UHGV virus genome: UHGV-1946849
Length of the DNA stretch: 11,494 nt
Source: a virus
Reading direction: 5' to 3' (one strand)
Under the pieces are notes generated by a model, which did not search any database, was not told the origin of the DNA, and worked only from the letters and a program-made list of their open reading frames with translations. Below, piece after piece: positions 5 to 11,494 of the stretch; the first letter of the stretch is position 1; each line of letters begins with the position of its first letter. Both the position numbers and the translations under genes were made by a program.

Positions 5-81
5 CTAGCGAATCACTCTTTAAAGAGCGAGAAAAAAGGCATGGAACAATATTTTATGCCTTTGTATTAACATGAATTTAA
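5..81. repeat. Left attachment-site direct repeat (attL candidate)
   Basis: 77 bp identical base for base to 11418..11494; identity breaks sharply at position 4 versus 11417. Contains a 7-bp stem inverted repeat AAGGCAT/ATGCCTT. Confidence 0.8.
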
Positions 82-213
82 AAGATTTTATTCTTACTGT
101 TTCATTTTCTGTAAATCATATATCCTCAGTATTTGACATTCATCACTCTAGCGGGAACAATACGACACAATAAGACACCTGATGACTCTTTAAGAAACGA
201 AAGGGGGGCAATA

Positions 214-402
214 GTGTTAAGCACTGATCGGTTTATACGTGAAAAAGAATGCGAAAAACTAACCGGCCTTAGCCGTACGTGTCGCTACCGCCTGGAAAAG
301 GCCGGACAATTCCCATCACGTCGTAAACTTGGCGGTCGTTCCGTTGGCTGGTCTTTATCCGAGGTTCTGGCCTGGAAGGATAGCTGCAAGGCAGTTCATT
401 AA
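214..402 (+). CDS. alpA: AlpA-family winged-helix transcriptional regulator / excisionase-like protein (62 aa from GTG 214; the track ORF extends to TTG 133)
   Basis: Translation RFIREKECEKLTGLSRTCRYRLEKAGQFPSRRKLGGRSVGWSLSEVLAW aligns with E. coli CP4-57 AlpA as recalled. GTG at 214 follows the Shine-Dalgarno AAGGGGGG (201..208); the upstream TTG at 133 lies inside a TTGACA hexamer. Confidence 0.8.
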   Translation: MLSTDRFIREKECEKLTGLSRTCRYRLEKAGQFPSRRKLGGRSVGWSLSEVLAWKDSCKAVH

Positions 403-547
403 TCACGCTGGCGGCACGCAGCCGCCACACATCAATCATCTGAACACAGAGCTATAACCATGAAGATTGAATATACGCCAGAACGTGGGCGGGGATTCGT
501 TCGCCCTGGTGAAACTGAAAAACAACAAAATTGGGGTTTTTCAGGTA

Positions 548-582
548 TAAAAAAAGCGGCCCCGAAATGGAGCCGCCTTTCT
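548..582 (-). terminator. Hairpin terminator, mainly for the leftward operon, possibly bidirectional
   Basis: A-run 548..555, stem GCGGC 556..560 and GCCGC 572..576, then CTTTCT; on the minus strand the stem is followed by TTTTTTT. Confidence 0.45.
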
Positions 583-671
583 GAACAGATAACCCGCTGC
601 GCCGTTTGTGTGTGTGATCCCAAACATAAGCACGGGGATGATAGCCGTTATCAGGCTGGTGGGCAATGCAA

Positions 672-845
672 TCAGTCTGGTTCAGTTCGTTGCCATACCT
701 GCAATGAGCGCTTTTCCCTGTACTCTTTAAGGAATTGCTCAAGGGCAAAAGCACATGGCGCGAATCTTTCTGATTCATGCTCTATCTTTCTGCGCCGTCT
801 TTTCCGTGCCGGTGATAATGTTTTGGTCAATTCTTTATCGGTCAT
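672..845 (-). CDS. Hypothetical small basic protein (57 aa), second gene of the leftward operon
   Basis: Minus-strand ORF with AGGA 7 nt upstream of the ATG at 845; protein-like K/R/E-rich sequence MTDKELTKTLSPARKRRRRKIEH...; followed by the 548..582 terminator. The track start at 860 lacks a ribosome-binding site. Confidence 0.35.
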   Translation of the reverse strand: MTDKELTKTLSPARKRRRRKIEHESERFAPCAFALEQFLKEYREKRSLQVWQRTEPD

Positions 846-902
846 TGTGTTGTCCTGCATAGCAATGCGCCGTAATACCTTACACCACGGCGCTGATGGT
901 GA

Positions 903-1082
903 TTACTCTGGTTCTTTGGCCTTGCGCCGCTGGCGATATTCAACTTCTCGTTTTAATGCCGCAGTAACAAATTGCCCCGTACTTTCGCCAGGCATTTTTA
1001 CCGCCTCAACATTGTTCATAACTTCATGCGGAACCCTTGCCGCAACGGTTTGTGATTTTGCGTTTACCGCTTTTGTCGCCAT
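903..1082 (-). CDS. Ribbon-helix-helix (Arc/CopG-like) DNA-binding protein, 59 aa, candidate repressor
   Basis: Hand translation of the minus strand gives MATKAVNAKSQTVAARVPHEVMNNVEAVKMPGESTGQFVTAALKREVEYRQRRKAKEPE. It shows the R-V-P-x-E-V strand, helix, G-x-S-T turn, helix pattern; GAGGGG ribosome-binding site 8 nt upstream. Below the 60-aa cutoff, so absent from the ORF track. Confidence 0.5.
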   Translation of the reverse strand: MATKAVNAKSQTVAARVPHEVMNNVEAVKMPGESTGQFVTAALKREVEYRQRRKAKEPE

Positions 1083-1132
1083 GTGGTGTACCCCTCATAA
1101 AAAACAAATGCAGTATGCAGGAAAAAAAATAA

Positions 1133-1184
1133 GTGTTCAACACTTGACGTGTTTAACACCTGGGTTTAAATTGGTGTTCAACAC
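1133..1184. promoter_or_regulatory. Divergent promoter region with three palindromic operators GTGTT(C/T)AACAC
   Basis: 11-bp palindromes at 1133..1143, 1149..1159 and 1174..1184. Rightward -35 TTGACG at 1144..1149 and -10 TAAATT at 1167..1172 (17-bp spacer); operators overlap the -35 and the predicted start. Confidence 0.55.
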
Positions 1185-1281
1185 CTTGTTGGCGCAAGGT
1201 GCAGAAACGACGAAACCCGGCAGTGCGCTAACACTAACCGGGCTTCTAACCACCAACGATAGCGAAAGTATCGAGGTAGCT

Positions 1282-1482
1282 ATGAGAAATCATACCACAC
1301 ACCCGCAAGGGCGGGACTCGCACAACCTGAATAAATACATCTGGCGTTTTATCGCCCTGAGCACGGCACAACCGCGCGTGATTACCATTGAGGCCACCAG
1401 CGAACAGGAAGCACGCCAGCAATCTCCGGCTGGCTGCGTGATGGTATTTGCTGCCCGTATTCGTCAGGGGGTAGGCTTATGA
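1282..1482 (+). CDS. Hypothetical protein (66 aa), first gene of the rightward operon
   Basis: ATG at 1282 preceded by GAGGT; its stop overlaps the next start (ATGA). It is the 3' part of the 460..1482 track ORF, whose upstream portion looks non-coding. Confidence 0.4.
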   Translation: MRNHTTHPQGRDSHNLNKYIWRFIALSTAQPRVITIEATSEQEARQQSPAGCVMVFAARIRQGVGL

Positions 1483-1709
1483 GCCAGGAAATCACACTAC
1501 AACAGGCAGCAGAACGCGCCCACCAAATCGAAGTTATTTGCGCACTGGCAGAGGATTACCCTGGCATGATGACCGACAGCGAATCAGGGGCAATCATCGG
1601 CTTACTTAAACGCCTTAGCGGTGAGGTCTGCGTATTCCTGAGCGATGAACAGGAAAGAAGAACGCTTATTTCTAACGAAAAAAAATGCGGAGGGGTACAT
1701 GTGCAATAA
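1479..1709 (+). CDS. Hypothetical protein (76 aa)
   Basis: ATG with upstream GGGGGTAGG; start overlaps the upstream stop; same strand as the operon. Confidence 0.5.
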   Translation: MSQEITLQQAAERAHQIEVICALAEDYPGMMTDSESGAIIGLLKRLSGEVCVFLSDEQERRTLISNEKKCGGVHVQ

Positions 1710-1920
1710 AACCACACCGGACGCAGCCGCCGCCGCGCTCACTACGCTGATGCACGCGCTTATTGATATTTCTGTTATTGCTGACAGGGCGCATAAACAC
1801 GCAGCCAGAGAATCAGAATGCATCTTCCATTTAGCATTTGTGCAGCTAAAAGCCGATCAGGCACTGGATAAGGCCGGAAAAATTATCATGGCTGATGTGC
1901 AGGAGGTGCACCATGCATAA
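1699..1920 (+). CDS. Hypothetical protein (73 aa from ATG 1699; the track ORF starts at 1645)
   Basis: ATG 1699 follows GGAGGGG (1689..1695) with a 3-nt spacer; no recognisable motif. Confidence 0.45.
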   Translation: MCNKTTPDAAAAALTTLMHALIDISVIADRAHKHAARESECIFHLAFVQLKADQALDKAGKIIMADVQEVHHA

Positions 1921-2278
1921 TCTGTCAATTTCTGACCTTAACAGCATTCAGTTTGATGAGAAATTTACCGGGCAGTTGCTGGTCAATGTGGAGAACGGGC
2001 GCATAGTGCGTAATTATCACCTGCCGGATGGTGCAATTGCCGGAAGCGTTGAAGCATTGCTGGAACTGGCGGAACGTGCGCGACTGATTAAGCCGTCAAC
2101 GAGCCATCACGATGATGATCTGCATTTTACCGGATGTATGGTGAGTCACTACGAAAACGGCGTCGAGGTATCCTGTGAACGGCTGCGTGATGATTGCTGT
2201 TTCGGCACACTGCCGGAATTTATCGAGTTGCTGACCAGTTGCGGTTATCAGGTCATTCAGGGGGGTAAACATGCGTGA
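1913..2278 (+). CDS. Hypothetical protein (121 aa from ATG 1913; the track ORF starts at 1895)
   Basis: AGGAGG ribosome-binding site 6 nt upstream of ATG 1913; overlaps the preceding stop. Confidence 0.5.
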   Translation: MHNLSISDLNSIQFDEKFTGQLLVNVENGRIVRNYHLPDGAIAGSVEALLELAERARLIKPSTSHHDDDLHFTGCMVSHYENGVEVSCERLRDDCCFGTLPEFIELLTSCGYQVIQGGKHA

Positions 2279-2504
2279 TGATCGTTTTAATTCCCTGAAA
2301 CAGGAATTTTCCGGCGTTCCTGATGATGCGGCTGATGCGCTTTCGTCAATGCCAGAACTTATTAGAGCGGCTTTTTTCTTACTTTCCACGAGAGAATATA
2401 AATCAACGGGGCTTGATGTACTGAATATCGCCGCCGATTATGCGGAATATGTGGCAGAGGCGCGTTATAGAAGAAAATTTCCTGAGGATGTAAGCCATGC
2501 GTGA
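2271..2504 (+). CDS. Hypothetical protein (77 aa)
   Basis: ATG after GGGGGGTAAAC; ATGCGTGA start/stop overlap with the upstream gene. Confidence 0.5.
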   Translation: MRDDRFNSLKQEFSGVPDDAADALSSMPELIRAAFFLLSTREYKSTGLDVLNIAADYAEYVAEARYRRKFPEDVSHA

Positions 2505-2730
2505 TATTTACCACGAAACAATAGACCGCGCATTTCTTGCACTTTCTCACAGTGAAAACATGCTGGAAATATTGCGCATATGGCTTGAAACACTTGGCGA
2601 CAATGAACGCGACAAACAAAAATCAAGAATTGCCACGGCATTAATAACGCTTCTTGAGCCTGTAATAATGGAACTGCAAGAAATAGATCTATTGCACGAC
2701 AGATATAAAGAACAGCACACCGGAGAATAA
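2497..2730 (+). CDS. Hypothetical protein (77 aa)
   Basis: Same ATGCGTGA overlap junction as at 2271; acidic, helical-looking sequence. Confidence 0.5.
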   Translation: MRDIYHETIDRAFLALSHSENMLEILRIWLETLGDNERDKQKSRIATALITLLEPVIMELQEIDLLHDRYKEQHTGE

Positions 2731-2735
2731 AAATA

Positions 2736-3035
2736 ATGAAACTTAAATATTCTGGCTTAACTGCCAGTGGCAACACTCACCCTAAATTTACGCGCGGCGA
2801 TATTTACCGCGACCAGTACGGCGGCACGGTAATGATTAAGGGCGTGGAAGAACGGCGCGTAACCTACCGCCGTGAAGGTTACGAATATGATTGCGTGATG
2901 CCTGTTTATCAGTTCCGGCGTGATTTTTCTCTGGTACAGACCGCGCCGCATAACGTGTCCACCAGCAACGCCAGGGCACGGGCAAACATCCAGAAGCTGA
3001 AAACCATGATTAACGGATTCAGGGGTAAAAAATGA
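2736..3035 (+). CDS. Hypothetical protein (99 aa) immediately upstream of and coupled to the primase gene
   Basis: GGAGA ribosome-binding site; stop overlaps the primase ATG (ATGA). Confidence 0.55.
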   Translation: MKLKYSGLTASGNTHPKFTRGDIYRDQYGGTVMIKGVEERRVTYRREGYEYDCVMPVYQFRRDFSLVQTAPHNVSTSNARARANIQKLKTMINGFRGKK

Positions 3036-4786
3036 AACTGGCACCGAACGTAAAACAGCAGTCACGCGGCATAAAACACAAAGAAACAGAAGTCATTATT
3101 TTTGCGGGTAGTGATGCCTGGTCACACGCAAAACAATGGCAGGGACATGACGCGCGTATGGCCGGAGATAATGAGCCTCCTGTGTGGCTTGGGGAGCAGC
3201 AGTTATCCGAACTGGATAAGCTGCAAATTGTGCCGGAAGGCAGAAAATCCGTGCGCATATTCAGGGCCGGATATCTTGCGCCAGTAATGATAAAGGCGAT
3301 TGGTCAGAAGCTGGCGGCGGCAGGCGTACAGGATGCAAATTTTTACCCTGATGGTATGCACGGTCAGAAGGTGGAGAACTGGCGCGAATATCTGGCCCGT
3401 GAGCGCCAGAATCTTTCTGATGGTCTGGTCATTGAGCTTCCGGTAAAGCAAAAGGCGCAACTTTCGCAGATGGCGGACAGTGAGCGCGCGCAGCTGCTTG
3501 CCGATCGCTTTGATGGCGTTTGCGTACATCCTGAAAGTGAAATCGTTCACGTATGGCGCGGCGGGGTATGGTGTCCGGTCAGCACAATGGAACTTAGCCG
3601 CGAAATGGTGGCGATCTATTCAGAGCACAGGGCCACTTTCAGCAAGCGCGTAATCAATAACGCCGTGGAAGCGTTAAAAGTTATTGCCGAACCAATGGGC
3701 GAGCCGTCCGGCGATTTGTTGCCGTTCGCCAATGGTGCGCTTGACCTGAAAACGGGGGAATTTTCCCCGCACACGCCGGAGAACTGGATCACCACGCACA
3801 ACGGCATTGAGTACACGCCACCAGCACCAGGGGAGAACATCCGCGATAACGCGCCAAACTTTCATAAATGGCTTGAGCACGCAGCCGGAAAAGACCCGCG
3901 CAAGATGATGCGTATATGTGCCGCGCTGTACATGATTATGGCGAACCGGTACGACTGGCAGATGTTTATTGAGGCCACCGGAGACGGCGGGAGCGGTAAA
4001 AGTACATTCACACACATAGCCAGCCTTCTGGCAGGGAAACAGAACACGGTAAGCGCTGAAATGACATCGCTTGATGATGCTGGTGGACGTGCGCAGGTTG
4101 TCGGGAGTCGTCTTATCGTCCTGGCTGACCAGCCGAAATATACAGGCGAAGGAACGGGCATCAAGAAAATCACGGGCGGTGACCCCGTGGAAATTAACCC
4201 GAAATACGAAAAGCGTTTCACGGCGGTAATCAGGGCGGTGGTGCTGGCGACCAACAATAACCCGATGATATTCACCGAACGGGCCGGAGGTGTGGCACGT
4301 CGTCGCGTGATTTTCCGTTTCGACAATATCGTCAGTGAGGCCGAAAAAGACAGGGAGCTACCGGAAAAGATCGCGGCTGAAATCCCTGTCATTATCCGCC
4401 GATTGCTGGCGAACTTTACCGACCCTGAGAAGGCACGGGCTTTACTACTGGAACAGCGTGACGGTGATGAAGCTCTGGCAATAAAGCAACAGACGGATCC
4501 GGTTATTGAGTTTTGCCAGTTCCTGAATTTTCTGGAGGAAGCACGCGGCCTGATGATGGGCGGCGGTGGCGATTCAGTGAAGTACACGACCAGAAACAGC
4601 CTTTACCGCGTCTATCTGGCGTTTATGGCGTACGCAGGCAGGAGCAAACCGCTAAACGTAAATGACTTTGGCAAGGCTATGAAGCCAGCCGCGAAAGTTT
4701 ACGGACATGAATATATTACGCGGAAAGTTAAGGGAGTAACGCAGACTAACGCAATAACAACAGACGAGTGCGACGCGTTTTTATAA
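3032..4786 (+). CDS. Replication protein: P4-family primase C-terminal domain / D5-N plus SF3 helicase (584 aa)
   Basis: Walker A GDGGSGKST, a D5-N-like segment LPFANGALDLKTGEF...NGIEY and an SF3 motif C VVLATNNNP; size and layout match Pri-Rep proteins of P4-like elements and PICIs. Confidence 0.88.
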   Translation: MKLAPNVKQQSRGIKHKETEVIIFAGSDAWSHAKQWQGHDARMAGDNEPPVWLGEQQLSELDKLQIVPEGRKSVRIFRAGYLAPVMIKAIGQKLAAAGVQDANFYPDGMHGQKVENWREYLARERQNLSDGLVIELPVKQKAQLSQMADSERAQLLADRFDGVCVHPESEIVHVWRGGVWCPVSTMELSREMVAIYSEHRATFSKRVINNAVEALKVIAEPMGEPSGDLLPFANGALDLKTGEFSPHTPENWITTHNGIEYTPPAPGENIRDNAPNFHKWLEHAAGKDPRKMMRICAALYMIMANRYDWQMFIEATGDGGSGKSTFTHIASLLAGKQNTVSAEMTSLDDAGGRAQVVGSRLIVLADQPKYTGEGTGIKKITGGDPVEINPKYEKRFTAVIRAVVLATNNNPMIFTERAGGVARRRVIFRFDNIVSEAEKDRELPEKIAAEIPVIIRRLLANFTDPEKARALLLEQRDGDEALAIKQQTDPVIEFCQFLNFLEEARGLMMGGGGDSVKYTTRNSLYRVYLAFMAYAGRSKPLNVNDFGKAMKPAAKVYGHEYITRKVKGVTQTNAITTDECDAFL

Positions 4787-4800
4787 TTTTTTGTAATTGC

Positions 4801-5026
4801 TGTCTACCCTGTCTACCTGAGTAAAGAAAAATACATTTAATTCAGTGCATTAAGTTAGGTAGATAGCCTTTTTTTACTGTCTACCCACTATCTACCCTCT
4901 CTACCTGATTTTACCTGAATCAGACAGGGAGGTAGACACGGGGTAGATAGTGGATAAAAGCACTCTACCCCGCTGAAAGCCGCGCCATTACTGGTATGAG
5001 GGCCACTAAGGTAGATAAGGTAGACA
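4801..5026. repeat. Iteron cluster, candidate replication origin / cis replication region
   Basis: At least 11 copies of (G/T)TCTACC(C) in both orientations (forward at 4802, 4811, 4879, 4890, 4900, 4964; reverse GGTAGA at 4858, 4931, 4942, 5010, 5019), non-coding, directly downstream of the primase gene. Confidence 0.6.
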
Positions 5027-5074
5027 AGGGGAGGCACAACTCAAAACTTTTTAAACGAGGGGGTAAAAATAAAT

Positions 5075-5353
5075 ATGCACACTTCAGGGAAATTTAATAA
5101 ATCACTCAAAAAACGCAGAGACAGAACAGAACCGAAATATCGCGCGTTAGACATGACAGAGCACGCTTTAAAGGTGGCAATCAGAACGATAGACCGCCAC
5201 GCGGGGGAAGGATACGCGAAAGCACATCCCGAACTGATAAGCGCATTCATGACCACGACGGCGGCAAATTTTGCCACGCTGACAGAGCGGGAGATTGCCG
5301 AAGCGGAACAGGTAACAACCATCAACGTTAAAACCGGAGAGGTGGAATCATGA
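5075..5353 (+). CDS. Hypothetical protein (92 aa), coupled to the ssb-like gene
   Basis: GAGGGGG ribosome-binding site upstream; stop overlaps the next ATG (ATGA). Confidence 0.55.
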   Translation: MHTSGKFNKSLKKRRDRTEPKYRALDMTEHALKVAIRTIDRHAGEGYAKAHPELISAFMTTTAANFATLTEREIAEAEQVTTINVKTGEVES

Positions 5354-5772
5354 CAGCACAGATAGCAGCTTACGGGCGGCTGGTGGACGACCCGCAGGTA
5401 AAACAGACCAGCAAGGGCACACCGATGACGCTGGCGCGTATGGCGGTCCCCCTTCCGTGCAGCCAGGCAGATGACGGAACGGCGACGATGTGGTTATCCG
5501 TCCTGGCATTTGGCAGACAGGCCGAAGCACTGGAAAGGCACCGCAAGGGTGAACTCCTGAGCGTGGCGGGTAACATGCAGATCAGCCAGTGGACTGGGCA
5601 GAACGGAGAAACGCGGCAGGGCTGGCAGGTTATCGCAGACAGTGTAATCAGTGCGCGAACGGCGCGACTGGGCGGCAAAAAAGGTCAACAGGGCCAGGCT
5701 ACTGACGCGCTGAACAGGGCAAAACAACAGGCGGGGAATGATGATCCGTACGGGGATAACATACCGTTTTAA
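5350..5772 (+). CDS. ssb: Single-stranded DNA-binding protein homologue (140 aa)
   Basis: OB-fold segment WLSVLAFGRQAEALERHRKGELLSVAGNMQISQWTGQNGETRQGWQVIADSV aligns with E. coli SSB [52 protein letters not shown]; Gly/Gln-rich linker; C-terminal DDPYGDNIPF resembles the SSB acidic tip DDDIPF. Confidence 0.8.
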   Translation: MTAQIAAYGRLVDDPQVKQTSKGTPMTLARMAVPLPCSQADDGTATMWLSVLAFGRQAEALERHRKGELLSVAGNMQISQWTGQNGETRQGWQVIADSVISARTARLGGKKGQQGQATDALNRAKQQAGNDDPYGDNIPF

Positions 5773-5787
5773 GCGACGAGTGACAGA

Positions 5788-5811
5788 AGCCGGAGCAATC
5801 CGGCTTTTTTA
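5788..5811 (+). terminator. Rho-independent terminator after the ssb-like gene
   Basis: Stem GCCGGA (5789..5794), loop GCAA, stem TCCGGC (5799..5804), then TTTTTT. Confidence 0.7.
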
Positions 5812-5860
5812 CGGGTCCTCCTGGCGGGGTGGGCCTGAACACGGGGCGGGAAGCGCGGAA
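5811..5860 (+). other. Degenerate cos-like relic (cosQ-like with a disrupted cosN)
   Basis: ACGGGTCCTCCTGG...ACGGGGCGGGAAGCGCGG parallels the intact copy at 8253..8300 (ACGGGTCCTTTCCGG...ACGGGGCGGCGACCTCGCGG), and the preceding terminator hairpin is duplicated too. Confidence 0.5.
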
Positions 5861-5990
5861 AAAAGCGCATTTTTGTGATTTTATCGTCATCATCATCATG
5901 AGCGTAATTTATTGTTTTTAATTGTTTTGATGCAAAAAAGATGATGGTTGTGGTTAATTTTCGTTCGACATCTTTGCAGGCAGATAAAAA

Positions 5991-6027
5991 AGCCCGATAA
6001 GGTCAGAGGTGGCTTATCGGGCTTTTG
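5991..6027. terminator. Strong hairpin, bidirectional terminator-like
   Basis: Perfect 11-bp inverted repeat AGCCCGATAAG / CTTATCGGGCT with an 11-nt loop, flanked by an A-run upstream and TTTT downstream. Confidence 0.5.
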
Positions 6028-6103
6028 CATATGAGGCTTTTTGGTGCACTGACACACATGAGCGGGATCATCATTTCATAATTTGCAACACAACTCAATA
6101 TCA

Positions 6104-6152
6104 TTGCACAAAACGCAATCCTGATTATAATCAGAGCTGGATGAACATCCAG
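6104..6152 (+). promoter_or_regulatory. Candidate sigma-70 promoter of the capsid operon with a 16-bp palindrome at the predicted start
   Basis: -35 TTGCAC (6104..6109), 16-bp spacer, -10 TATAAT (6126..6131); perfect palindrome CTGGATGAACATCCAG at 6137..6152. Confidence 0.5.
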
Positions 6153-6187
6153 TTATGATTTTTTAAGTCGAAGAGGAATTTCTTACT

Positions 6188-6394
6188 ATGGCTGAAGAGA
6201 AAAAAGGCGGTGTTTCGGTGTACATAAGCCCCGAAATCGTGGAGGTGCTCAAGCAGCGCCACAAAAAAAACTATGAGGCTGGCGTGGCGGCTGGACTGGA
6301 TCCGCTGATGACGCCGGAGCCGTCGATAGGTTCACTTGTACGCTCTTATTTACTTGCGGCGCTTGGGATGCATAAAAATTATGGGGGTGAATAA
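6188..6394 (+). CDS. Hypothetical small protein (68 aa) translationally coupled to the capsid gene
   Basis: AAGAGGA ribosome-binding site; stop TAA overlaps the capsid ATG (TAATG). Confidence 0.6.
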   Translation: MAEEKKGGVSVYISPEIVEVLKQRHKKNYEAGVAAGLDPLMTPEPSIGSLVRSYLLAALGMHKNYGGE

Positions 6395-7449
6395 TGGCAG
6401 GCAAAGCAACGGCACTTAACACTAACCAGCTTTTCATGTACCTGAATCGCGGGGATATTGCGGATTTTAAATTCAGCCCTCTGTTTACTACGCTGTTTTT
6501 CCCGAACGTGGCGACATTCAGCACGCAAAACATCATGCTGGATACCCTGGACATTGAAGAAGTCACCATGTCGGCGTTTTGTTCGCCTATGGTGGGTAGC
6601 CAGGTTCAGCGCGATAAAGGGTACGAAACCAGCACGATTAAACCTGGCTACATGAAGCCAAAGCACGAAATCGATCCAACGAAAACCATCATGCGCATGG
6701 CTGGAGAAGATCCGGCACAGCTTAACGACCCTACCTATCGCCGTATGCGCCTGATTACTGGCAATATGCGCCGCCAGATAAACGCCATAAAAGCGCGCGT
6801 GGAATGGCTGGCGGTAAATGCGGTAACGACCGGAAAAAACATCATTGAGGGCGAAGGCATAGAGCGCTATGAAATCGACTGGAAGATACCGGAAAAAAAC
6901 ATCATAGAGCAGGCCGACGGGAAAAAATGGTCAGCGCAGGACAAAGAAACCCACGATCCAATCTATGATATCGAACTATACGCCGATCAGGCTGGTTGCC
7001 CCGCAAACGTCATGATTATGGGCGCTGAGGTATGGCGAACGTTACGCAGCTTTAAAAAATTCCGTGAGCTGTACGATCTTTCCCGTGGTTCAGAATCCGC
7101 CGCCGAACTGGCCTGTAAAAACCTGGGCGAAGTGGTGAGCTTTAAAGGCTATCTTGGTGATCTGGCCCTTATCGTCTATTCCGGCAAATACACTGACAGC
7201 GATGGTACCGAAAAATATTTCCTTGAGCCTGATTTGCTGGTCCTAGGTAACACCAACAATAAAGGGCTGGTGGCCTATGGTGCGATAATGGATCAGGAAG
7301 CGGTAAGAACGGGCGCAACACAAAACATGTTTTACCCGAAAAACTGGATTGAGGACGGCGATCCGGCGATTGAGTACGTGCAGACACACAGTGCACCGCA
7401 GCCGGTACCGGCAGATATTCGCAAATTTGTTACCGTCAAAATTGGTTAA
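6394..7449 (+). CDS. Major capsid protein, lambda gpE-like (351 aa)
   Basis: Colinear similarity to lambda E as recalled: FSPLF..LFF, KPGYMKPKHEIDP, DPTYRRMR, GSESAAELACKNLGEVVSFKGYLGDLALIVYSGKYTD, LVLGNT, YPKNW, GDPA. Confidence 0.9.
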   Translation: MAGKATALNTNQLFMYLNRGDIADFKFSPLFTTLFFPNVATFSTQNIMLDTLDIEEVTMSAFCSPMVGSQVQRDKGYETSTIKPGYMKPKHEIDPTKTIMRMAGEDPAQLNDPTYRRMRLITGNMRRQINAIKARVEWLAVNAVTTGKNIIEGEGIERYEIDWKIPEKNIIEQADGKKWSAQDKETHDPIYDIELYADQAGCPANVMIMGAEVWRTLRSFKKFRELYDLSRGSESAAELACKNLGEVVSFKGYLGDLALIVYSGKYTDSDGTEKYFLEPDLLVLGNTNNKGLVAYGAIMDQEAVRTGATQNMFYPKNWIEDGDPAIEYVQTHSAPQPVPADIRKFVTVKIG

Positions 7450-7461
7450 CGGGGGGATTCT

Positions 7462-7797
7462 ATGGACACTCCATACATTGAGTTATTTGCAGGCAGTCAG
7501 CGGGTCGCCACGACGCTGGTACATTTTGCCGCTGATGCTGGCGTTATTCAGGAATTTACCCCGCTGATGCTGGCAGACAATGGCGAGTTTAAGCCGTGGG
7601 ATGGTCAGGAATCTGGCAAGGCTGTTTATCTGACCTCGTACCCTGTGGACACGTCAAAGCAGAAATCAGCACAGTGTTACAAGACGGGGATTTTCAATAT
7701 TGCCGCCGTTAACTGGCCTGAGAGCGTCGACACCGATGCGAAAAAATGCGCCGCCTTTGCGGGTTCCGGCGTATCCGTTCAGCCGCTGGCCCGATAA
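7462..7797 (+). CDS. Head decoration protein, lambda gpD-like (111 aa)
   Basis: FTPLMLAD, WDG, YKTGIFN, WPES and KKCAAFAGSG match the lambda D motifs TPLMLDT, WDG, YKSGTFR, WPEA and KKRTAFAGT. Confidence 0.82.
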   Translation: MDTPYIELFAGSQRVATTLVHFAADAGVIQEFTPLMLADNGEFKPWDGQESGKAVYLTSYPVDTSKQKSAQCYKTGIFNIAAVNWPESVDTDAKKCAAFAGSGVSVQPLAR

Positions 7798-7809
7798 GCA
7801 GGGGGAACG

Positions 7810-8223
7810 ATGGCAACGAATGAAAGCGTCATGACGCTACCGCTGGCGAGTAAATTTAAAGCCGAAGCGCGGGCAATGGCTGACAGAGGTTTATCAACCT
7901 ACGAGGCCGTATATCAACTCAACAAACTGGAAGAGCAGGACAAGCCGCGCGCTGATGCGATTATGGCGCTTCATGAACATAACGACTATCAGCCGCTGTT
8001 ACGTGCAATGGCAAACGTGCCATGTATTAGCGTCGATAATGCTCGTGAAATCCTGAACATGACCATAGAGCAGGAGCGCCCAAAGGTTGCGCCGGAGCTT
8101 ACCGCAGCCTTTGAAAACTTTATGGACATGCACAGCCCGAAAGCCGTATCACCCGGCATGGCATACGACGGCAGAAACCAGGGCGATGAAGGCGACGTCG
8201 ATCGCATACTGAAAACCATCTGA
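7810..8223 (+). CDS. Hypothetical protein (137 aa), last gene of the capsid operon
   Basis: GGGGGAA ribosome-binding site; followed by the terminator at 8229..8252. Confidence 0.6.
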   Translation: MATNESVMTLPLASKFKAEARAMADRGLSTYEAVYQLNKLEEQDKPRADAIMALHEHNDYQPLLRAMANVPCISVDNAREILNMTIEQERPKVAPELTAAFENFMDMHSPKAVSPGMAYDGRNQGDEGDVDRILKTI

Positions 8224-8228
8224 CATAA

Positions 8229-8252
8229 GGCCGGAGAAATCCGGCTTTTTTT
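8229..8252 (+). terminator. Rho-independent terminator
   Basis: Stem GCCGGA (8230..8235), loop GAAA, stem TCCGGC (8240..8245), then TTTTTTT; near-identical to the terminator at 5788..5811. Confidence 0.7.
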
Positions 8253-8310
8253 ACGGGTCCTTTCCGGCATATGGACCCGTTACGGGGCGGCGACCTCGCG
8301 GGTTTTCGCT
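8253..8310 (+). other. Lambda-type cos site (cosQ and cosN with the 12-nt cohesive end GGGCGGCGACCT at 8285..8296) with a truncated cosB
   Basis: ACGGGTCCTTTCCGG...GTTACGGGGCGGCGACCTCGCGGGTTTTCGCTATTTATGA matches the lambda cos junction as recalled; it then diverges to CGTTTTTCCGTG, and the Nu1-like gene starts only about 90 bp downstream. Confidence 0.85.
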
Positions 8311-8385
8311 ATTTATGACGTTTTTCCGTGAAGGTGACACCACCACCACTTGATTAATATTTAACCATGCAGTTAAGGTAACATT

Positions 8386-8820
8386 ATGATTGATAAAGCT
8401 TGTTTTGTAAGTCAGCAGGAAATAGCTGAACATTTCAAGGTTAACAGAACCACTATTCGCGCATGGACCAAACAGGGGATGCCGTATCTTAATGCGGATC
8501 GCGGAAAGTCTGGCGGTTATCACATCGGGCATACATTGCTTTGGTCTTCAGGTAAAAGCCGTCTTGAGACCATCAGATATCACGTAGAAACCAGTGCGCT
8601 GGAAAAAATTATGTTTGCCAGGCTGCTTTCATCTGAGCGTGACGAGTACTCCAGTGAAGAAACAGAACATCGATTTGATGAAGGTTTGCAGATTTACGGC
8701 TATTCACCGGAAGATGTGAGCAAGGCACGAAATAAAATGGCTGGCTTTCTGGCTGGGTGGCGTCATGCCATAAGCGTTCGCCGTGCCAGCATGGAGCAAT
8801 CAGCCGATACAGAACAGTAA
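8386..8820 (+). CDS. Small terminase (lambda Nu1)-like protein, candidate Rpp-type packaging-redirection factor (144 aa)
   Basis: N-terminus VSQQEIAEHFKVNRTTIRAWTKQGMPYLNADRGKSGGYHIGHTLLWSSGKS aligns with lambda Nu1 VNKKQLADIFGASIRTIQNWQEQGMPVLRGGGKGNEVLYDSAAVIKWYAER; no large terminase gene follows. Confidence 0.78.
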   Translation: MIDKACFVSQQEIAEHFKVNRTTIRAWTKQGMPYLNADRGKSGGYHIGHTLLWSSGKSRLETIRYHVETSALEKIMFARLLSSERDEYSSEETEHRFDEGLQIYGYSPEDVSKARNKMAGFLAGWRHAISVRRASMEQSADTEQ

Positions 8821-8887
8821 AGCCGATAACTTGTTAATCACTCGCAGCAATGCATGTGATTTGTGCACACTTTCGGTTAACTGGTTC

Positions 8888-9066
8888 GATGTCCGGTTTT
8901 AGTGTCTGTTTTTTGCGCATGTCCGGTTCATGGAAAGCATGTTTTTATATTTTTCATATGGTTAACTTGCAGAGAAACCGGACATGGATCCCGAAAAATT
9001 TTCATAAATAGTGAAAACGCGCGAGGTCGCCGCCCCGTAACGGGCCATAATTCCAGGAAGGACCCG
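8888..9066 (-). other. Second lambda-type cos site in inverted orientation, with a distinct cosB made of three ATGTCCGGTT elements
   Basis: Reverse complement of 9001..9066 reads ACGGGTCCTTCCTGG...GTTACGGGGCGGCGACCTCGCGCGTTTTCACTATTTATGAA (cohesive end at 9024..9035); R-like elements at 8889..8898, 8919..8928 and inverted at 8976..8985, with an AT-rich spacer between. Confidence 0.75.
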
Positions 9067-9099
9067 ACGACACCAGACTATCAGAGCGATGGGGGCACA

Positions 9100-9381
9100 A
9101 TGACAGAAGCCGAACTACTGGGATTAATCCGCCGCGTTACCGGAATCAGCCAGCAGCATGACGAACAGGCCACGCAGCCGGACAGCGTGACCGCCGAAAA
9201 TTACGCGCGTGTGGTTGCTGAGGTGATGCGCCGTGATGGTATCCAGCTTAATGATGTGGATATGCGCAACATACGGATCCGCGTTCTTGAAATGCTGGCC
9301 TACAATCGCCGCGTGGCACTGTATCGGGAAACGGAGAAAATTACGTACCACTGGAAGAAGCCGGAGCGGTTACGGCGTTAA
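9100..9381 (+). CDS. Hypothetical protein (93 aa from ATG 9100; the track ORF starts at 8902 inside the cos sequence)
   Basis: ATG 9100 preceded by GGGGG; upstream in-frame sequence is the inverted cos site. Confidence 0.5.
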   Translation: MTEAELLGLIRRVTGISQQHDEQATQPDSVTAENYARVVAEVMRRDGIQLNDVDMRNIRIRVLEMLAYNRRVALYRETEKITYHWKKPERLRR

Positions 9382-9397
9382 CGAGTAGCGACATACC

Positions 9398-9556
9398 GTG
9401 ACGGAGAGTGACAACCAGTGACACGCCGTGACAAAAGACGGTTTAACCGTTAATTAAAAATTGACGGGATTTTGTGCTTTCCGGACGACGTGACCAACGT
9501 CATTTTTTAGCGAAAAGTTCTGATTAAGGTCATTGTCTGAATGGTCATAATGACCA
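9398..9556. promoter_or_regulatory. Array of GTGAC-family binding-site repeats
   Basis: Four GTGAC copies at exactly 10-bp phasing (9398, 9408, 9418, 9428), an inverted pair GTGACCAACGTCAT (9490..9503), and the palindrome TGGTCATAATGACCA (9542..9556). Confidence 0.5.
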
Positions 9557-9717
9557 CTCCTACAAAACAGGTAAAGCCCACCAGCCTGATTAACAGTTAA
9601 CCGGAAAAAAAATCCGGTAGCCCCGTTATGGGGATCCCCATATCAACATTAACGCCCCTCATGAATTAGCGCGCTTCCCCCTGGAAAGATGACCCGCCTG
9701 TATATTTCTTGTGTCTA

Positions 9718-10012
9718 TTTGTTCCACGTTGTTTCATACAGTGCACCGAACGGTGTAGTCACTGGTGTAGTCATTTTGCGATTTATGGCACTTTTTGTAG
9801 TGCAAATCATTTAATTAAATCAATGCGTTAAGTGAAATTAGTTATATATAACAGCATTTTATCATTTAGTGTTTTTTGCTGTTTCATAATGTTTCAGGCT
9901 GTGCATTATGTTTTTGATTATCAACAGATTTGTGATTTTCCTTGTTCCAGCTTGTTTCACGTTGTAGCCCTTTGTGCAACGATCGGTGTAGTCACTGGTG
10001 TAGTCACTTTTT
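9718..10012. repeat. Duplicated element of about 60 bp upstream of int, each copy ending in tandem GGTGTAGTCA repeats
   Basis: CGGTGTAGTCACTGGTGTAGTCA at 9751..9773 and 9984..10006 with similar upstream context, flanking an AT-rich stretch of about 200 bp. Confidence 0.6.
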
Positions 10013-10031
10013 CGTAAAGAGGGGGTAAAAC

Positions 10032-11261
10032 GTGAGCAGAGCAATGAACAAACTGAGCGATACCTTGCTAAGGAAACTTCATGGTAAGCCAGCGGAGAAA
10101 AACACGTTTTATAGTGATGGCGGAAACCTGAGCGTGAAATATTTAACATCAGGGAAATTGACCTGGTATTTCACATACAGGGCCGGAACGGGAAGGGAGA
10201 CACGACCCGAACGCATTAAGCTGGGAAGTTATCCTGATCTGAGCCTGAAAGCAGCCAGGGAAAAAGCCGCACAGTGTCGCACATGGCTGGCTGAGGGGAA
10301 AAATCCACGTCATGAGATGAATTACACCGTACAGGAAGCGTTAAAGCCCGTAACGGTTGGCGATGCGCTCACCTACTGGCTTGAGTATTACGTAAAGGAA
10401 AACCGCGTGGATTATATCGCCCTGAAAAGGCGACTTAATAATCACGTAATACAGCAGATTGGTGCTATGCCGCTGGATAAATGCGAGCTACGGCACTGGC
10501 TGGCCTGTTTTGACCAGGTGGTAAAGCGAACGCCTGTTACTGCCGGATTCGTGCTACAGGCGTGCAAACAGGCGCTTAAGTTCTGCCGTAGGCGGCGCTA
10601 TGCAATCAGCAACGTTCTGGACGATCTGAACGTTGCGGACGTTGGGAAAAAACCGGATATAAGCGAACGTGTCTTAAGTAACAAAGAACTTGGCGAATTA
10701 TTGCAGGCACTGGACAAAAAAATATTCTCCCCTTACTACGTCGCGTTAATCCGCCTCCTGATTGTCTTCGGAGCCAGAACGGTAGAACTGAGGTTATCGG
10801 AGATCGGGGAGTGGGATTTTACGGAAATGCTATGGACCGTTCCGAAGGAGCACAGCAAAACGAAGGTCGCAATATTCCGGCCCATACCGGAAGCGATCCT
10901 GCCGTTCGTCACGCAGCTGGTGGAGCAGAACAGGCACACGGGCTTATTGCTGGGGGAAGTGAAACAGGAGGCCAGCGTATCGCAGTATGGAAGATTAGCG
11001 CACAGGAGGCTTAATCACCCTCACTGGTCACTGCATGACATCCGGCGCACCTTTACAACCATGCTGAACGATTTAGGCGTTGATCCGCATGTCGTGGAGC
11101 AGCTTACAGGCCACCAGATGCCAGGAATGCAGCGAGTTTATAATCATTCCCGTTATCTGGATGCGAAACGCAATGCGCTGGATATGTGGACGGAGCGGTT
11201 AGGGATACTGGCGGGAACACATGAAAACGTAACCACGCTACCCGTAGCCAGAAGAAAATAA
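10032..11261 (+). CDS. int: Tyrosine recombinase, P4-type integrase with N-terminal arm-binding domain (409 aa)
   Basis: N-terminal arm-binding-domain pattern (DGGNLSVKYLTSGKLTWYFTYR...IKLGSYPDLSLKAAREKA); catalytic region with R..HDIRRT..LTGH..Y residues; GTG start after GAGGGGG. Confidence 0.93.
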   Translation: MSRAMNKLSDTLLRKLHGKPAEKNTFYSDGGNLSVKYLTSGKLTWYFTYRAGTGRETRPERIKLGSYPDLSLKAAREKAAQCRTWLAEGKNPRHEMNYTVQEALKPVTVGDALTYWLEYYVKENRVDYIALKRRLNNHVIQQIGAMPLDKCELRHWLACFDQVVKRTPVTAGFVLQACKQALKFCRRRRYAISNVLDDLNVADVGKKPDISERVLSNKELGELLQALDKKIFSPYYVALIRLLIVFGARTVELRLSEIGEWDFTEMLWTVPKEHSKTKVAIFRPIPEAILPFVTQLVEQNRHTGLLLGEVKQEASVSQYGRLAHRRLNHPHWSLHDIRRTFTTMLNDLGVDPHVVEQLTGHQMPGMQRVYNHSRYLDAKRNALDMWTERLGILAGTHENVTTLPVARRK

Positions 11262-11278
11262 TTTTTTTCGTGTTTTTT

Positions 11279-11355
11279 CAGTATGCGCATACTGGATATG
11301 CGAACAGATACAACGTGCAACAATGAGCAACAATGTGGAACAACTACGAACAAGA
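11279..11355. promoter_or_regulatory. Candidate integrase arm-type / accessory sites next to the right repeat
   Basis: Perfect 16-bp palindrome CAGTATGCGCATACTG (11279..11294) and (C/G)AACAA repeats at about 10-bp phasing (11302..11355, including GCAACAATG twice). Confidence 0.4.
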
Positions 11356-11417
11356 GGCGAAAAAGCGTACGGATTTATAAGTAGCTGATTTTTAATGTGT
11401 TACTGGTTTTTTGTACA

Positions 11418-11494
11418 CTAGCGAATCACTCTTTAAAGAGCGAGAAAAAAGGCATGGAACAATATTTTATGCCTTTGTATTAACATGAATTTAA
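11418..11494. repeat. Right attachment-site direct repeat (attR candidate)
   Basis: Identical to 5..81; the window ends at the repeat end, so the identity could extend further. Confidence 0.8.

Follow-up and report, generated by a model that had tools for sequence, protein, structure and literature searches.

Within the window, by which we mean the whole analysed stretch of 11,494 nucleotides (UHGV-1946849), two lambda-type cos sites face each other across a single gene in the layout cosQ1-cosN1-cosB1 > rppA < cosB2-cosN2-cosQ2 (Table 1). According to Pfam and RefSeq annotation, the surrounding element encodes, in this order, an integrase, an AlpA-like HTH protein, Icd-like genes, a D5-type primase and an SSB, followed by homologs of the lambda capsid protein E and decoration protein D and by proteins of 137, 144 and 93 amino acids. 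Bases 5-81 of the window recur at 11418-11494 as a 77-nt terminal direct repeat, which leaves a unit of 11,413 nt. The sequence is a circular permutation of one chromosomal island of EcPF5 (E. coli), and its two parts, 5-9856 and 9848-11494, join at an attachment core near 9848-9856. Based on the terminal repeat and the permutation, the window represents an 11.4-kb element as a contig that is circular or was derived from a concatemer, and its source is an excised, replicating or packaged form.

The EcPF5 copy lies within tqsA. In CFT073, the same module adjoins phoQ; its identity with the window is 96% over 5986-9382. No tRNA genes were detected in the window, and the island sits in tqsA or beside phoQ, not at a tRNA. 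The window is an EcCICFT073-type PICI of 11.4 kb in circularly permuted form, EcCICFT073 being the model Gram-negative cos PICI. The homologs of the major capsid protein E and of decoration protein D are encoded at 6394-7797; for the corresponding genes c1499 and c1500, no phenotype was found in the literature, and the packaged DNA described there is phage-sized only.

The 144-aa protein encoded between the cos sites is identical to RppA of CFT073 at 142/144 positions, matches RppC in the PDB (6HLK, E=4.5e-31) and has an N-terminal domain resembling the DNA-binding domain of lambda Nu1 (30% over 64 residues, E=2e-6). The original prediction of a Nu1-like gene flanked by both cos sites was correct as to position; on these matches, however, we identify the gene as rppA (redirecting phage packaging protein) and not as a terminase gene. 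The 93-aa ORF on the other side of cos2 showed no Pfam match, and a comparison with 50,697 phage records gave no homolog; it is therefore regarded as specific to the island family. For the same reason, its reading together with cos2 as one phage module was rejected, and the phage-like part is the cos alone. Matches from O157:H7 to positions 8991-9382 were considered as prophage cos regions and discarded, since their annotation is that of a same-family island at phoQ. The stretch 9387-9432, located between the 93-aa ORF and the attachment site, contains three direct repeats of 16 nt, each with GTGAC at its end (AGCGACATACCGTGAC, AGTGACAACCAGTGAC and AGTGACACGCCGTGAC). Among the relatives, L013 and L015, for example, have conserved these repeats, which may be integrase or excisionase arm-type sites.

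Anatomy of the two convergent cos sites

The cosN sequence GGGCGGCGACCT occurs exactly twice in the window, once on each strand, against a chance expectation of 0.03. The starts of the two copies are 739 nt apart, in line with the predicted recurrence of cosQ and cosN about 730 bp further on and on the opposite strand. Both copies are enclosed by an inverted repeat of 78 nt (8254-8331 / 8989-9066, 82% complementary), and each is preceded at about 30 nt by the cosQ GGGTCCT, an offset similar to that of lambda. Because cosB1 and cosB2 both lie between the two cosN copies, the cos sites converge on the Nu1-like gene at 8386-8820. The cosB regions themselves are unrelated, with 34/110 identical positions, which is about chance level. 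The pair thus consists of two opposed cos sites with different cosB, as had been proposed, and cosB2 is not of the cos1 type recognised by RppA-TerS.

Table 1. Features of the cos cassette and its right flank, with positions counted in the window
Feature	Position	Strand	Remarks
cosQ of cos1, GGGTCCT	8254..8260	+	starts 31 nt before cosN (lambda 30 nt)
cosN of cos1, GGGCGGCGACCT	8285..8296	+	exact lambda cosN; identical to published EcCICFT073 cos1
I2-like cosN-proximal stretch and island-specific cosB1 (GGTGACACCACCACCAC...)	8297..8385	+	ends at the rppA start codon
rppA, 144 aa	8386..8820	+	between both cos sites
R1-like element of cos2	8889..8898	-	ATGTCCGGTT on the + strand; invariant in 17 distinct P-type cosB
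R2-like element of cos2	8919..8928	-	+108 from cosN (lambda R2 +114)
AT-rich spacer of cos2, 47 nt	8929..8975	-	at the position of lambda I1; core TGAAAAATA invariant in the P-type alignment
R3-like element of cos2	8976..8985	-	ATGTCCGGTT on the - strand; +51 (lambda R3 +53)
I2-like cosN-proximal stretch of cos2	9002..9023	-	20/22 identical to lambda
cosN of cos2	9024..9035	-	exact GGGCGGCGACCT, identical to lambda NC_001416
cosQ of cos2	9060..9066	-	GGGTCCT, 30 nt upstream of cosN, read in cos orientation
Whole cos2	8889..9067	-	published EcCICFT073 cos2
93-aa ORF	9100..9381	+	right flank of the cos cassette; conserved beside cos2 in all family members examined

Three exact copies of the 10-nt repeat ATGTCCGGTT, putative TerS-binding elements, are arranged at lambda-like positions around the 47-nt AT-rich spacer of cos2. 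As predicted, two are direct and one is inverted (8889 and 8919 on the plus strand, 8976 on the minus strand), and no further exact copy was found elsewhere in the window. Counted from the start of cosN2, they are located at +51 (forward), +108 (reverse) and +138 (reverse), compared with +53 (forward), +114 (reverse) and +155 (forward) for R3, R2 and R1 of lambda. Judging from these positions, the geometry of R3-like element, AT-rich spacer and R2-like element is lambda-like, whereas the R1-like element is opposite in orientation and lies closer in, so that the lambda-like cosB order read by the original prediction applies to the former part and not to R1. In contrast to lambda, with its motif CGTTTCC, cos2 uses ATGTCCGGTT. 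Moreover, a small-terminase gene directly downstream of cosB2 is absent from the island, where the neighbour of cosB2 is the 3' end of rppA, encoded on the other strand. No IHF consensus with one mismatch or fewer was detected in the AT-rich spacer of cos2. With cosQ, cosN, an I2-like stretch, three repeat elements and the AT-rich spacer, cos2 reads, from its sequence, as a complete lambda-type cos.

The inverted copy had also been described as closer to lambda in its cosN-proximal sequence than the direct copy. This was not observed: over the first 22 nt after cosN, cos1 matches lambda at 22/22 and cos2 at 20/22 positions; the first 40 nt give 30 matches for cos1 and 31 for cos2, and the 40 nt upstream 28 versus 22. 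Within 8297..8385, it is only the remainder of cos1 beyond these first 22 nt that is unrelated to lambda.

The existence of the inverted second cos is confirmed; it has, however, already been published as cos2 of the E. coli satellite EcCICFT073. Over 292 nt around cosN it is identical to CFT073 (NC_004431), and it takes the same position between rppA and the next island ORF; cos1 differs over the same length by one base, which lies upstream of cosQ. Allowing for machine-reading errors, both sites match the sequences in Fig. S1A of PMC6739421, where the direct copy preceding rppA is printed as cos1 and the reverse complement of positions 8850-9066 as cos2. The original prediction is therefore partly supported overall: the anatomy was read correctly, but the published cos2 of a known satellite was missed.

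Previous studies addressed the function of both sites. Each cloned cos lets lambda and phi80 transfer a plasmid; island transfer falls upon deletion of cos1, rises upon deletion of cos2 (significantly for lambda) and is abolished in the double deletion (PMC6092414; Fillol-Salom et al. 2018, ISME J). The RppA-TerS heterodimer recognises the cosB of cos1 and not that of cos2; RppA stimulates cos1 only, and among chimeras only those with cosB1 respond (PMC6739421; Fillol-Salom et al. 2019, Mol Cell). Both papers state that a phage cosB is not identifiable in either cos, neither main text mentions the orientation of cos2 or its repeat elements, and the reason for two cos sites was left open in the published work on EcCICFT073. 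A search of the available literature for PhiR12 phages and later cos2 work returned nothing relevant. While the object is the same, two things are new beyond both main texts: the phage identity of cosB2, matched here to PhiR12-type phages, and an inversion polymorphism. For a further satellite, SaPIbov4, two putative cos sites have been mentioned (cited in PMC6092414); it shares this feature with the island described here, but it resides in a Gram-positive host and the sequences are unrelated.

Phage counterparts of cosB2

Positions 8889-9067 are 93.3% identical to the phages PhiR12_1, PhiR12_2, PhiR12_2_star, PhiR12_4 and PhiR12_5, and in PhiR12_1 the matching sequence directly precedes the Nu1 and gpA genes of the phage itself. 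The alignment of the island with the PhiR12-type cos (PV340549 and relatives) extends from cosQ through the third repeat (R1), including the three repeats and the spacer, and the homology ends right after R1; the phage site, in contrast, continues into Nu1 and gpA. Based on this match, we identify cosB2 as the native cosB of PhiR12-type lambdoid phages (P type) and not as an island-specific sequence. Across 17 distinct P-type cosB copies, the three repeats are invariant or nearly so, whereas the flanks vary. The phage module, defined as cosN, cosB and the first 300 nt of Nu1 at a coverage of at least 80% and annotated as terminase small subunit, was present in 1154/5426 complete E. coli genomes. 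With about a fifth of complete genomes, the PhiR12 type is a very common E. coli prophage class.

The corresponding small terminases were compared as well. Nu1 of PhiR12 and Nu1 of lambda align in their C-terminal halves only (46% identity), while their N-terminal DNA-binding domains do not align. RppA showed no likeness to the PhiR12 DNA-binding domain (E=0.05). TerS of the O103:H2 prophage combines the C-terminal half of PhiR12 Nu1 with yet another N-terminal domain and is preceded by the motif GGTTGTTGT. Across these phages, the DNA-binding domain of TerS and the cosB repeats change together, which is the signature expected of a recognition pair. From the Feiss laboratory, lambda and phage 21 are reportedly known to have a common cosN and differing cosB repeats that are read by differing TerS DNA-binding domains. 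These specificity classes recur in the island family, where some relatives carry a 21-like cosB at cos2; different from the lambda/21 case, two classes are found here on one replicon, in convergent orientation and within a satellite.

The prophage at icd in CFT073, which was named as helper prophage of EcCICFT073 (PMC10111431), has a 21-like cosB and not one of the P type.

Conservation, cosB exchange and inversion among related islands

In order to assess the conservation of the pair, we collected 80 IMG/VR loci encoding the 137-aa protein together with chromosomal loci, of which 74 were informative; contigs representing one genome per species, scanned with the same protein, yielded no relatives. 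Two convergent cos sites were present in 58/74 informative relatives, a count which overstates the support because the related loci are not phylogenetically independent. In the remaining loci, cos2 is cleanly absent (6/74), reduced to a relic of cosQ and half of cosN (1/74) or disrupted (1/74); in 7/74, rpp is missing and a single direct cos is present, with a P-type cosB and a truncated start of a PhiR12-type Nu1, and in 1/74 the 137-aa gene is joined to a P-type cos with full terminase genes. The inverted copy is hence kept in most of the related islands that were informative. Its dismissal as a relic of recombination, which the original prediction had made dependent on poor conservation and on cleavage of the direct cos alone, does not agree with this distribution or with the reported function of both sites (PMC6092414).

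The relatives differ in the combination of their cosB regions. Sites of the RppA type at cos1 are paired with a P-type cos2 in 14 loci and with a cos2 of the GGTTGTTGT ('C') type in 8 loci. A cos1 of the TerS-like type is accompanied by a cos2 of the CAGATCC type (13 loci), by a 21/lambda hybrid (8 loci) or by a 21-like site (2 loci), and 10 loci without rpp have P and C sites, both phage-type. L064 is a ninth locus with the hybrid cos2, and the cosB of its cos1 falls outside the classes. Overall, at least five phage-like types of cosB (P, C, 21-like, hybrid and lambda-like) occur at cos2 between the same flanks, indicating that the cosB of cos2 is replaced as a unit. The 21-like type aligns with the cosB of phage 21 over 95% of its length at 77-83% identity. 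The C type is 77% identical to the cosB of the O103:H2 prophage, with near identity in the rpp-less islands. It had first been taken as island-specific for want of a match in the phage collection, and this was rejected once the sequence was found upstream of TerS/TerL in the O103:H2 prophage. For the CAGATCC type, comparison with lambdoid cos regions revealed partial similarity only (72-79%). Exchange also takes place between the two copies of one island, as indicated by L072, which has the same cosN variant GGGCGTCGACCT in both copies, and by several islands in which cos1 contains the cosQ-cosN spacer of the cos2 type.

Several further loci deviate from the common arrangement. The single direct cos with P-type cosB in L041, L044, L045 and L077-L080 (about 4470-4800) has a differing cosN, GGGCGGGAGCGGCG; these loci lack rpp and contain the initial ~30 codons of a PhiR12-type Nu1. 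L067 and L083 contain an inverted second cos whose variant cosN is related to GGGCGGGAGCGGCG. In L085 (3530-4614), the 137-aa gene is joined to a P-type cos with the cosN variant GGGCGTCGACCT, which is followed by a full-length Nu1 and the start of gpA. The 137-aa gene is thus part either of a hybrid between phage and island or of a phage. In L002, L005 and more than 20 IMG/VR loci, rppA is replaced by a gene for a 180-aa protein annotated as terminase small subunit, the N-terminus of which resembles TerS of the O103:H2 prophage. The cosB upstream of this gene (GGTGGTGG...CACCAACC) looks like a diverged copy of the GGTTGTTGT...CAACAACC cosB of the same prophage.

Natural islands contain the inter-cos segment in either orientation. 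Among islands with rppA, 65 genomes show the orientation of the window and 15 complete genomes the flipped one; the latter were found with a query in which the inter-cos segment of the window type was inverted, and they matched it end to end (100% coverage, 97.4% identity). Islands without rpp have the order C/P in 4 loci and P/C in 6 loci. According to the annotation of two flipped genomes, an intact rppA lies between the 137-aa and the 93-aa genes, encoded on the opposite strand. These two genomes have identical island proteins at the same site, and with all 15 at 97.4% identity the flipped rppA islands may go back to one event.

No invertase gene was found in or beside the cassette; the sole recombinase is the tyrosine integrase of the island, about 1 kb away across attP. 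The inversion fits with homologous recombination in the 25-50 nt around cosN over which the two copies are identical. It would likewise fit with cutting of both cos sites by terminase, after which the identical 5'-GGGCGGCGACCT overhangs could religate either way: going by the chemistry of lambda cos, the segment would have identical 12-nt overhangs at both ends, and religation in either orientation would be chemically possible.

Possible roles of the second cos site

Considering these data, we regard it as probable that cos2 serves a second helper class as a packaging site independent of Rpp, the link to the PhiR12 terminase being drawn from sequence identity and context. With helpers of the lambda or phi80 type, the RppA-TerS heterodimer binds cosB1 and packaging starts at cos1, as shown in the literature for the identical sequence. 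PhiR12-type helpers would instead use their unmodified terminase, which is predicted to bind the three ATGTCCGGTT elements and to nick cosN2. Packaging begun at cos2 would run in the opposite direction and end at the next cos2 in the concatemer. Phages of this type, whose TerS DNA-binding domain RppA does not resemble, would be served without Rpp. Among the functions originally offered for the pair, the use of two helper specificities is the one favoured by the evidence, since cosB2 is native to PhiR12-type phages and RppA-TerS reads cos1 only (PMC6739421).

Several observations count against a second-helper role. The cos2 site is dispensable and lacks an intact copy in 8 relatives (6 absent, 1 relic, 1 disrupted), and its deletion improves transfer by lambda (PMC6092414). 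The 21-like cosB of the icd helper prophage in CFT073 counts against it as well, as does the missing IHF consensus in the spacer. The increased transfer by lambda could follow from the convergent arrangement, as cutting of both sites in one unit would release a 0.74-kb fragment with rppA and abort both packaging runs. Such double cutting would explain the published rise after deletion of cos2. In an inverted arrangement, moreover, recombination between the repeats leads to inversion and not to the loss of rppA, and both orientations have indeed been observed.

A broader reading, which we put forward tentatively and consider less likely than not, is that cos1, rppA and cos2 form a modular, exchangeable packaging cassette of dual specificity, in which cos2 recruits the unmodified terminase of a second prophage class and the convergent orientation preserves rppA. 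The partner class of cos2 would be the PhiR12 type here and a GGTTGTTGT-type, 21-like or lambda-like class in the relatives, enabling the satellite to ride helpers whose TerS cannot be hijacked by RppA. The convergent layout would be retained for the reason that recombination of the repeats, or double terminase cuts followed by religation of the identical 12-nt overhangs, would end in harmless inversions and not in the loss of rppA.

It appears unlikely, by comparison, that cos2 arose when island and lambdoid phages recombined at their common cosQ/cosN and has been tolerated since, being cuttable by terminase, without benefit and slowly lost. The 8 relatives with an absent, relic or disrupted cos2 would agree with such a loss, the transfer by cos1 alone and the higher lambda-mediated transfer after cos2 deletion (PMC6092414) with the missing benefit, and the cosB types do look like repeated captures from phages. 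However, a complete cosQ-cosN-cosB has been kept in 58/74 relatives across several Rpp/TerS types and integration sites, and its repeats are invariant while the flanks vary. The repeated swaps to other intact cosB cassettes, instead of decay, argue for selection, and islands without rpp keep two phage-type sites.

Even less probable is a main function of the convergent pair as an invertible switch of rppA expression or packaging polarity, or as a decoy in which high-copy cos2 titrates the helper terminase. Both orientations do occur (65 versus 15 genomes with rppA, 4 versus 6 loci without rpp), and the identical 12-nt overhangs left by double cutting could allow religation either way. Yet neither the cassette nor its immediate surroundings encode an invertase, and the flipped rppA genomes suggest a single event. 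Each state keeps one complete cos per type, so that a flip would alter little beyond polarity and the orientation of rppA. As for a decoy, the published interference maps to RppA and not to cos2 (PMC6739421).

Finally, a role as termination site for packaging begun at cos1 had been among the suggested options. Termination in lambda needs cosQ-cosN in the direction of translocation as well as a nearly full head. Although cosQ and cosN, the elements lambda needs to terminate, are present, this role is highly implausible and was rejected on orientation, since cos2 lies 739 nt downstream of cos1 in the opposite orientation, each site would be met in the wrong orientation by packaging from the other, and islands lacking cos2 transfer better, not worse (PMC6092414).

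The proposed function of cos2 as an Rpp-independent site for a second helper class thus provides a testable answer to the question of why these satellites carry two cos sites. It can be addressed directly, as the PhiR12 phages, whose native cosB is present at cos2, have already been isolated and can be grown on laboratory E. coli, as their terminase class occurs in about a fifth of complete E. coli genomes and as the relatives swap this cosB among phage specificity types. If cos2 widens the helper range, this range would be determined not by Rpp alone but also by a small DNA cassette that can be swapped. If true, this would bear on the prediction of the phages that spread virulence-associated islands and on the engineering of PICI-based delivery vehicles.
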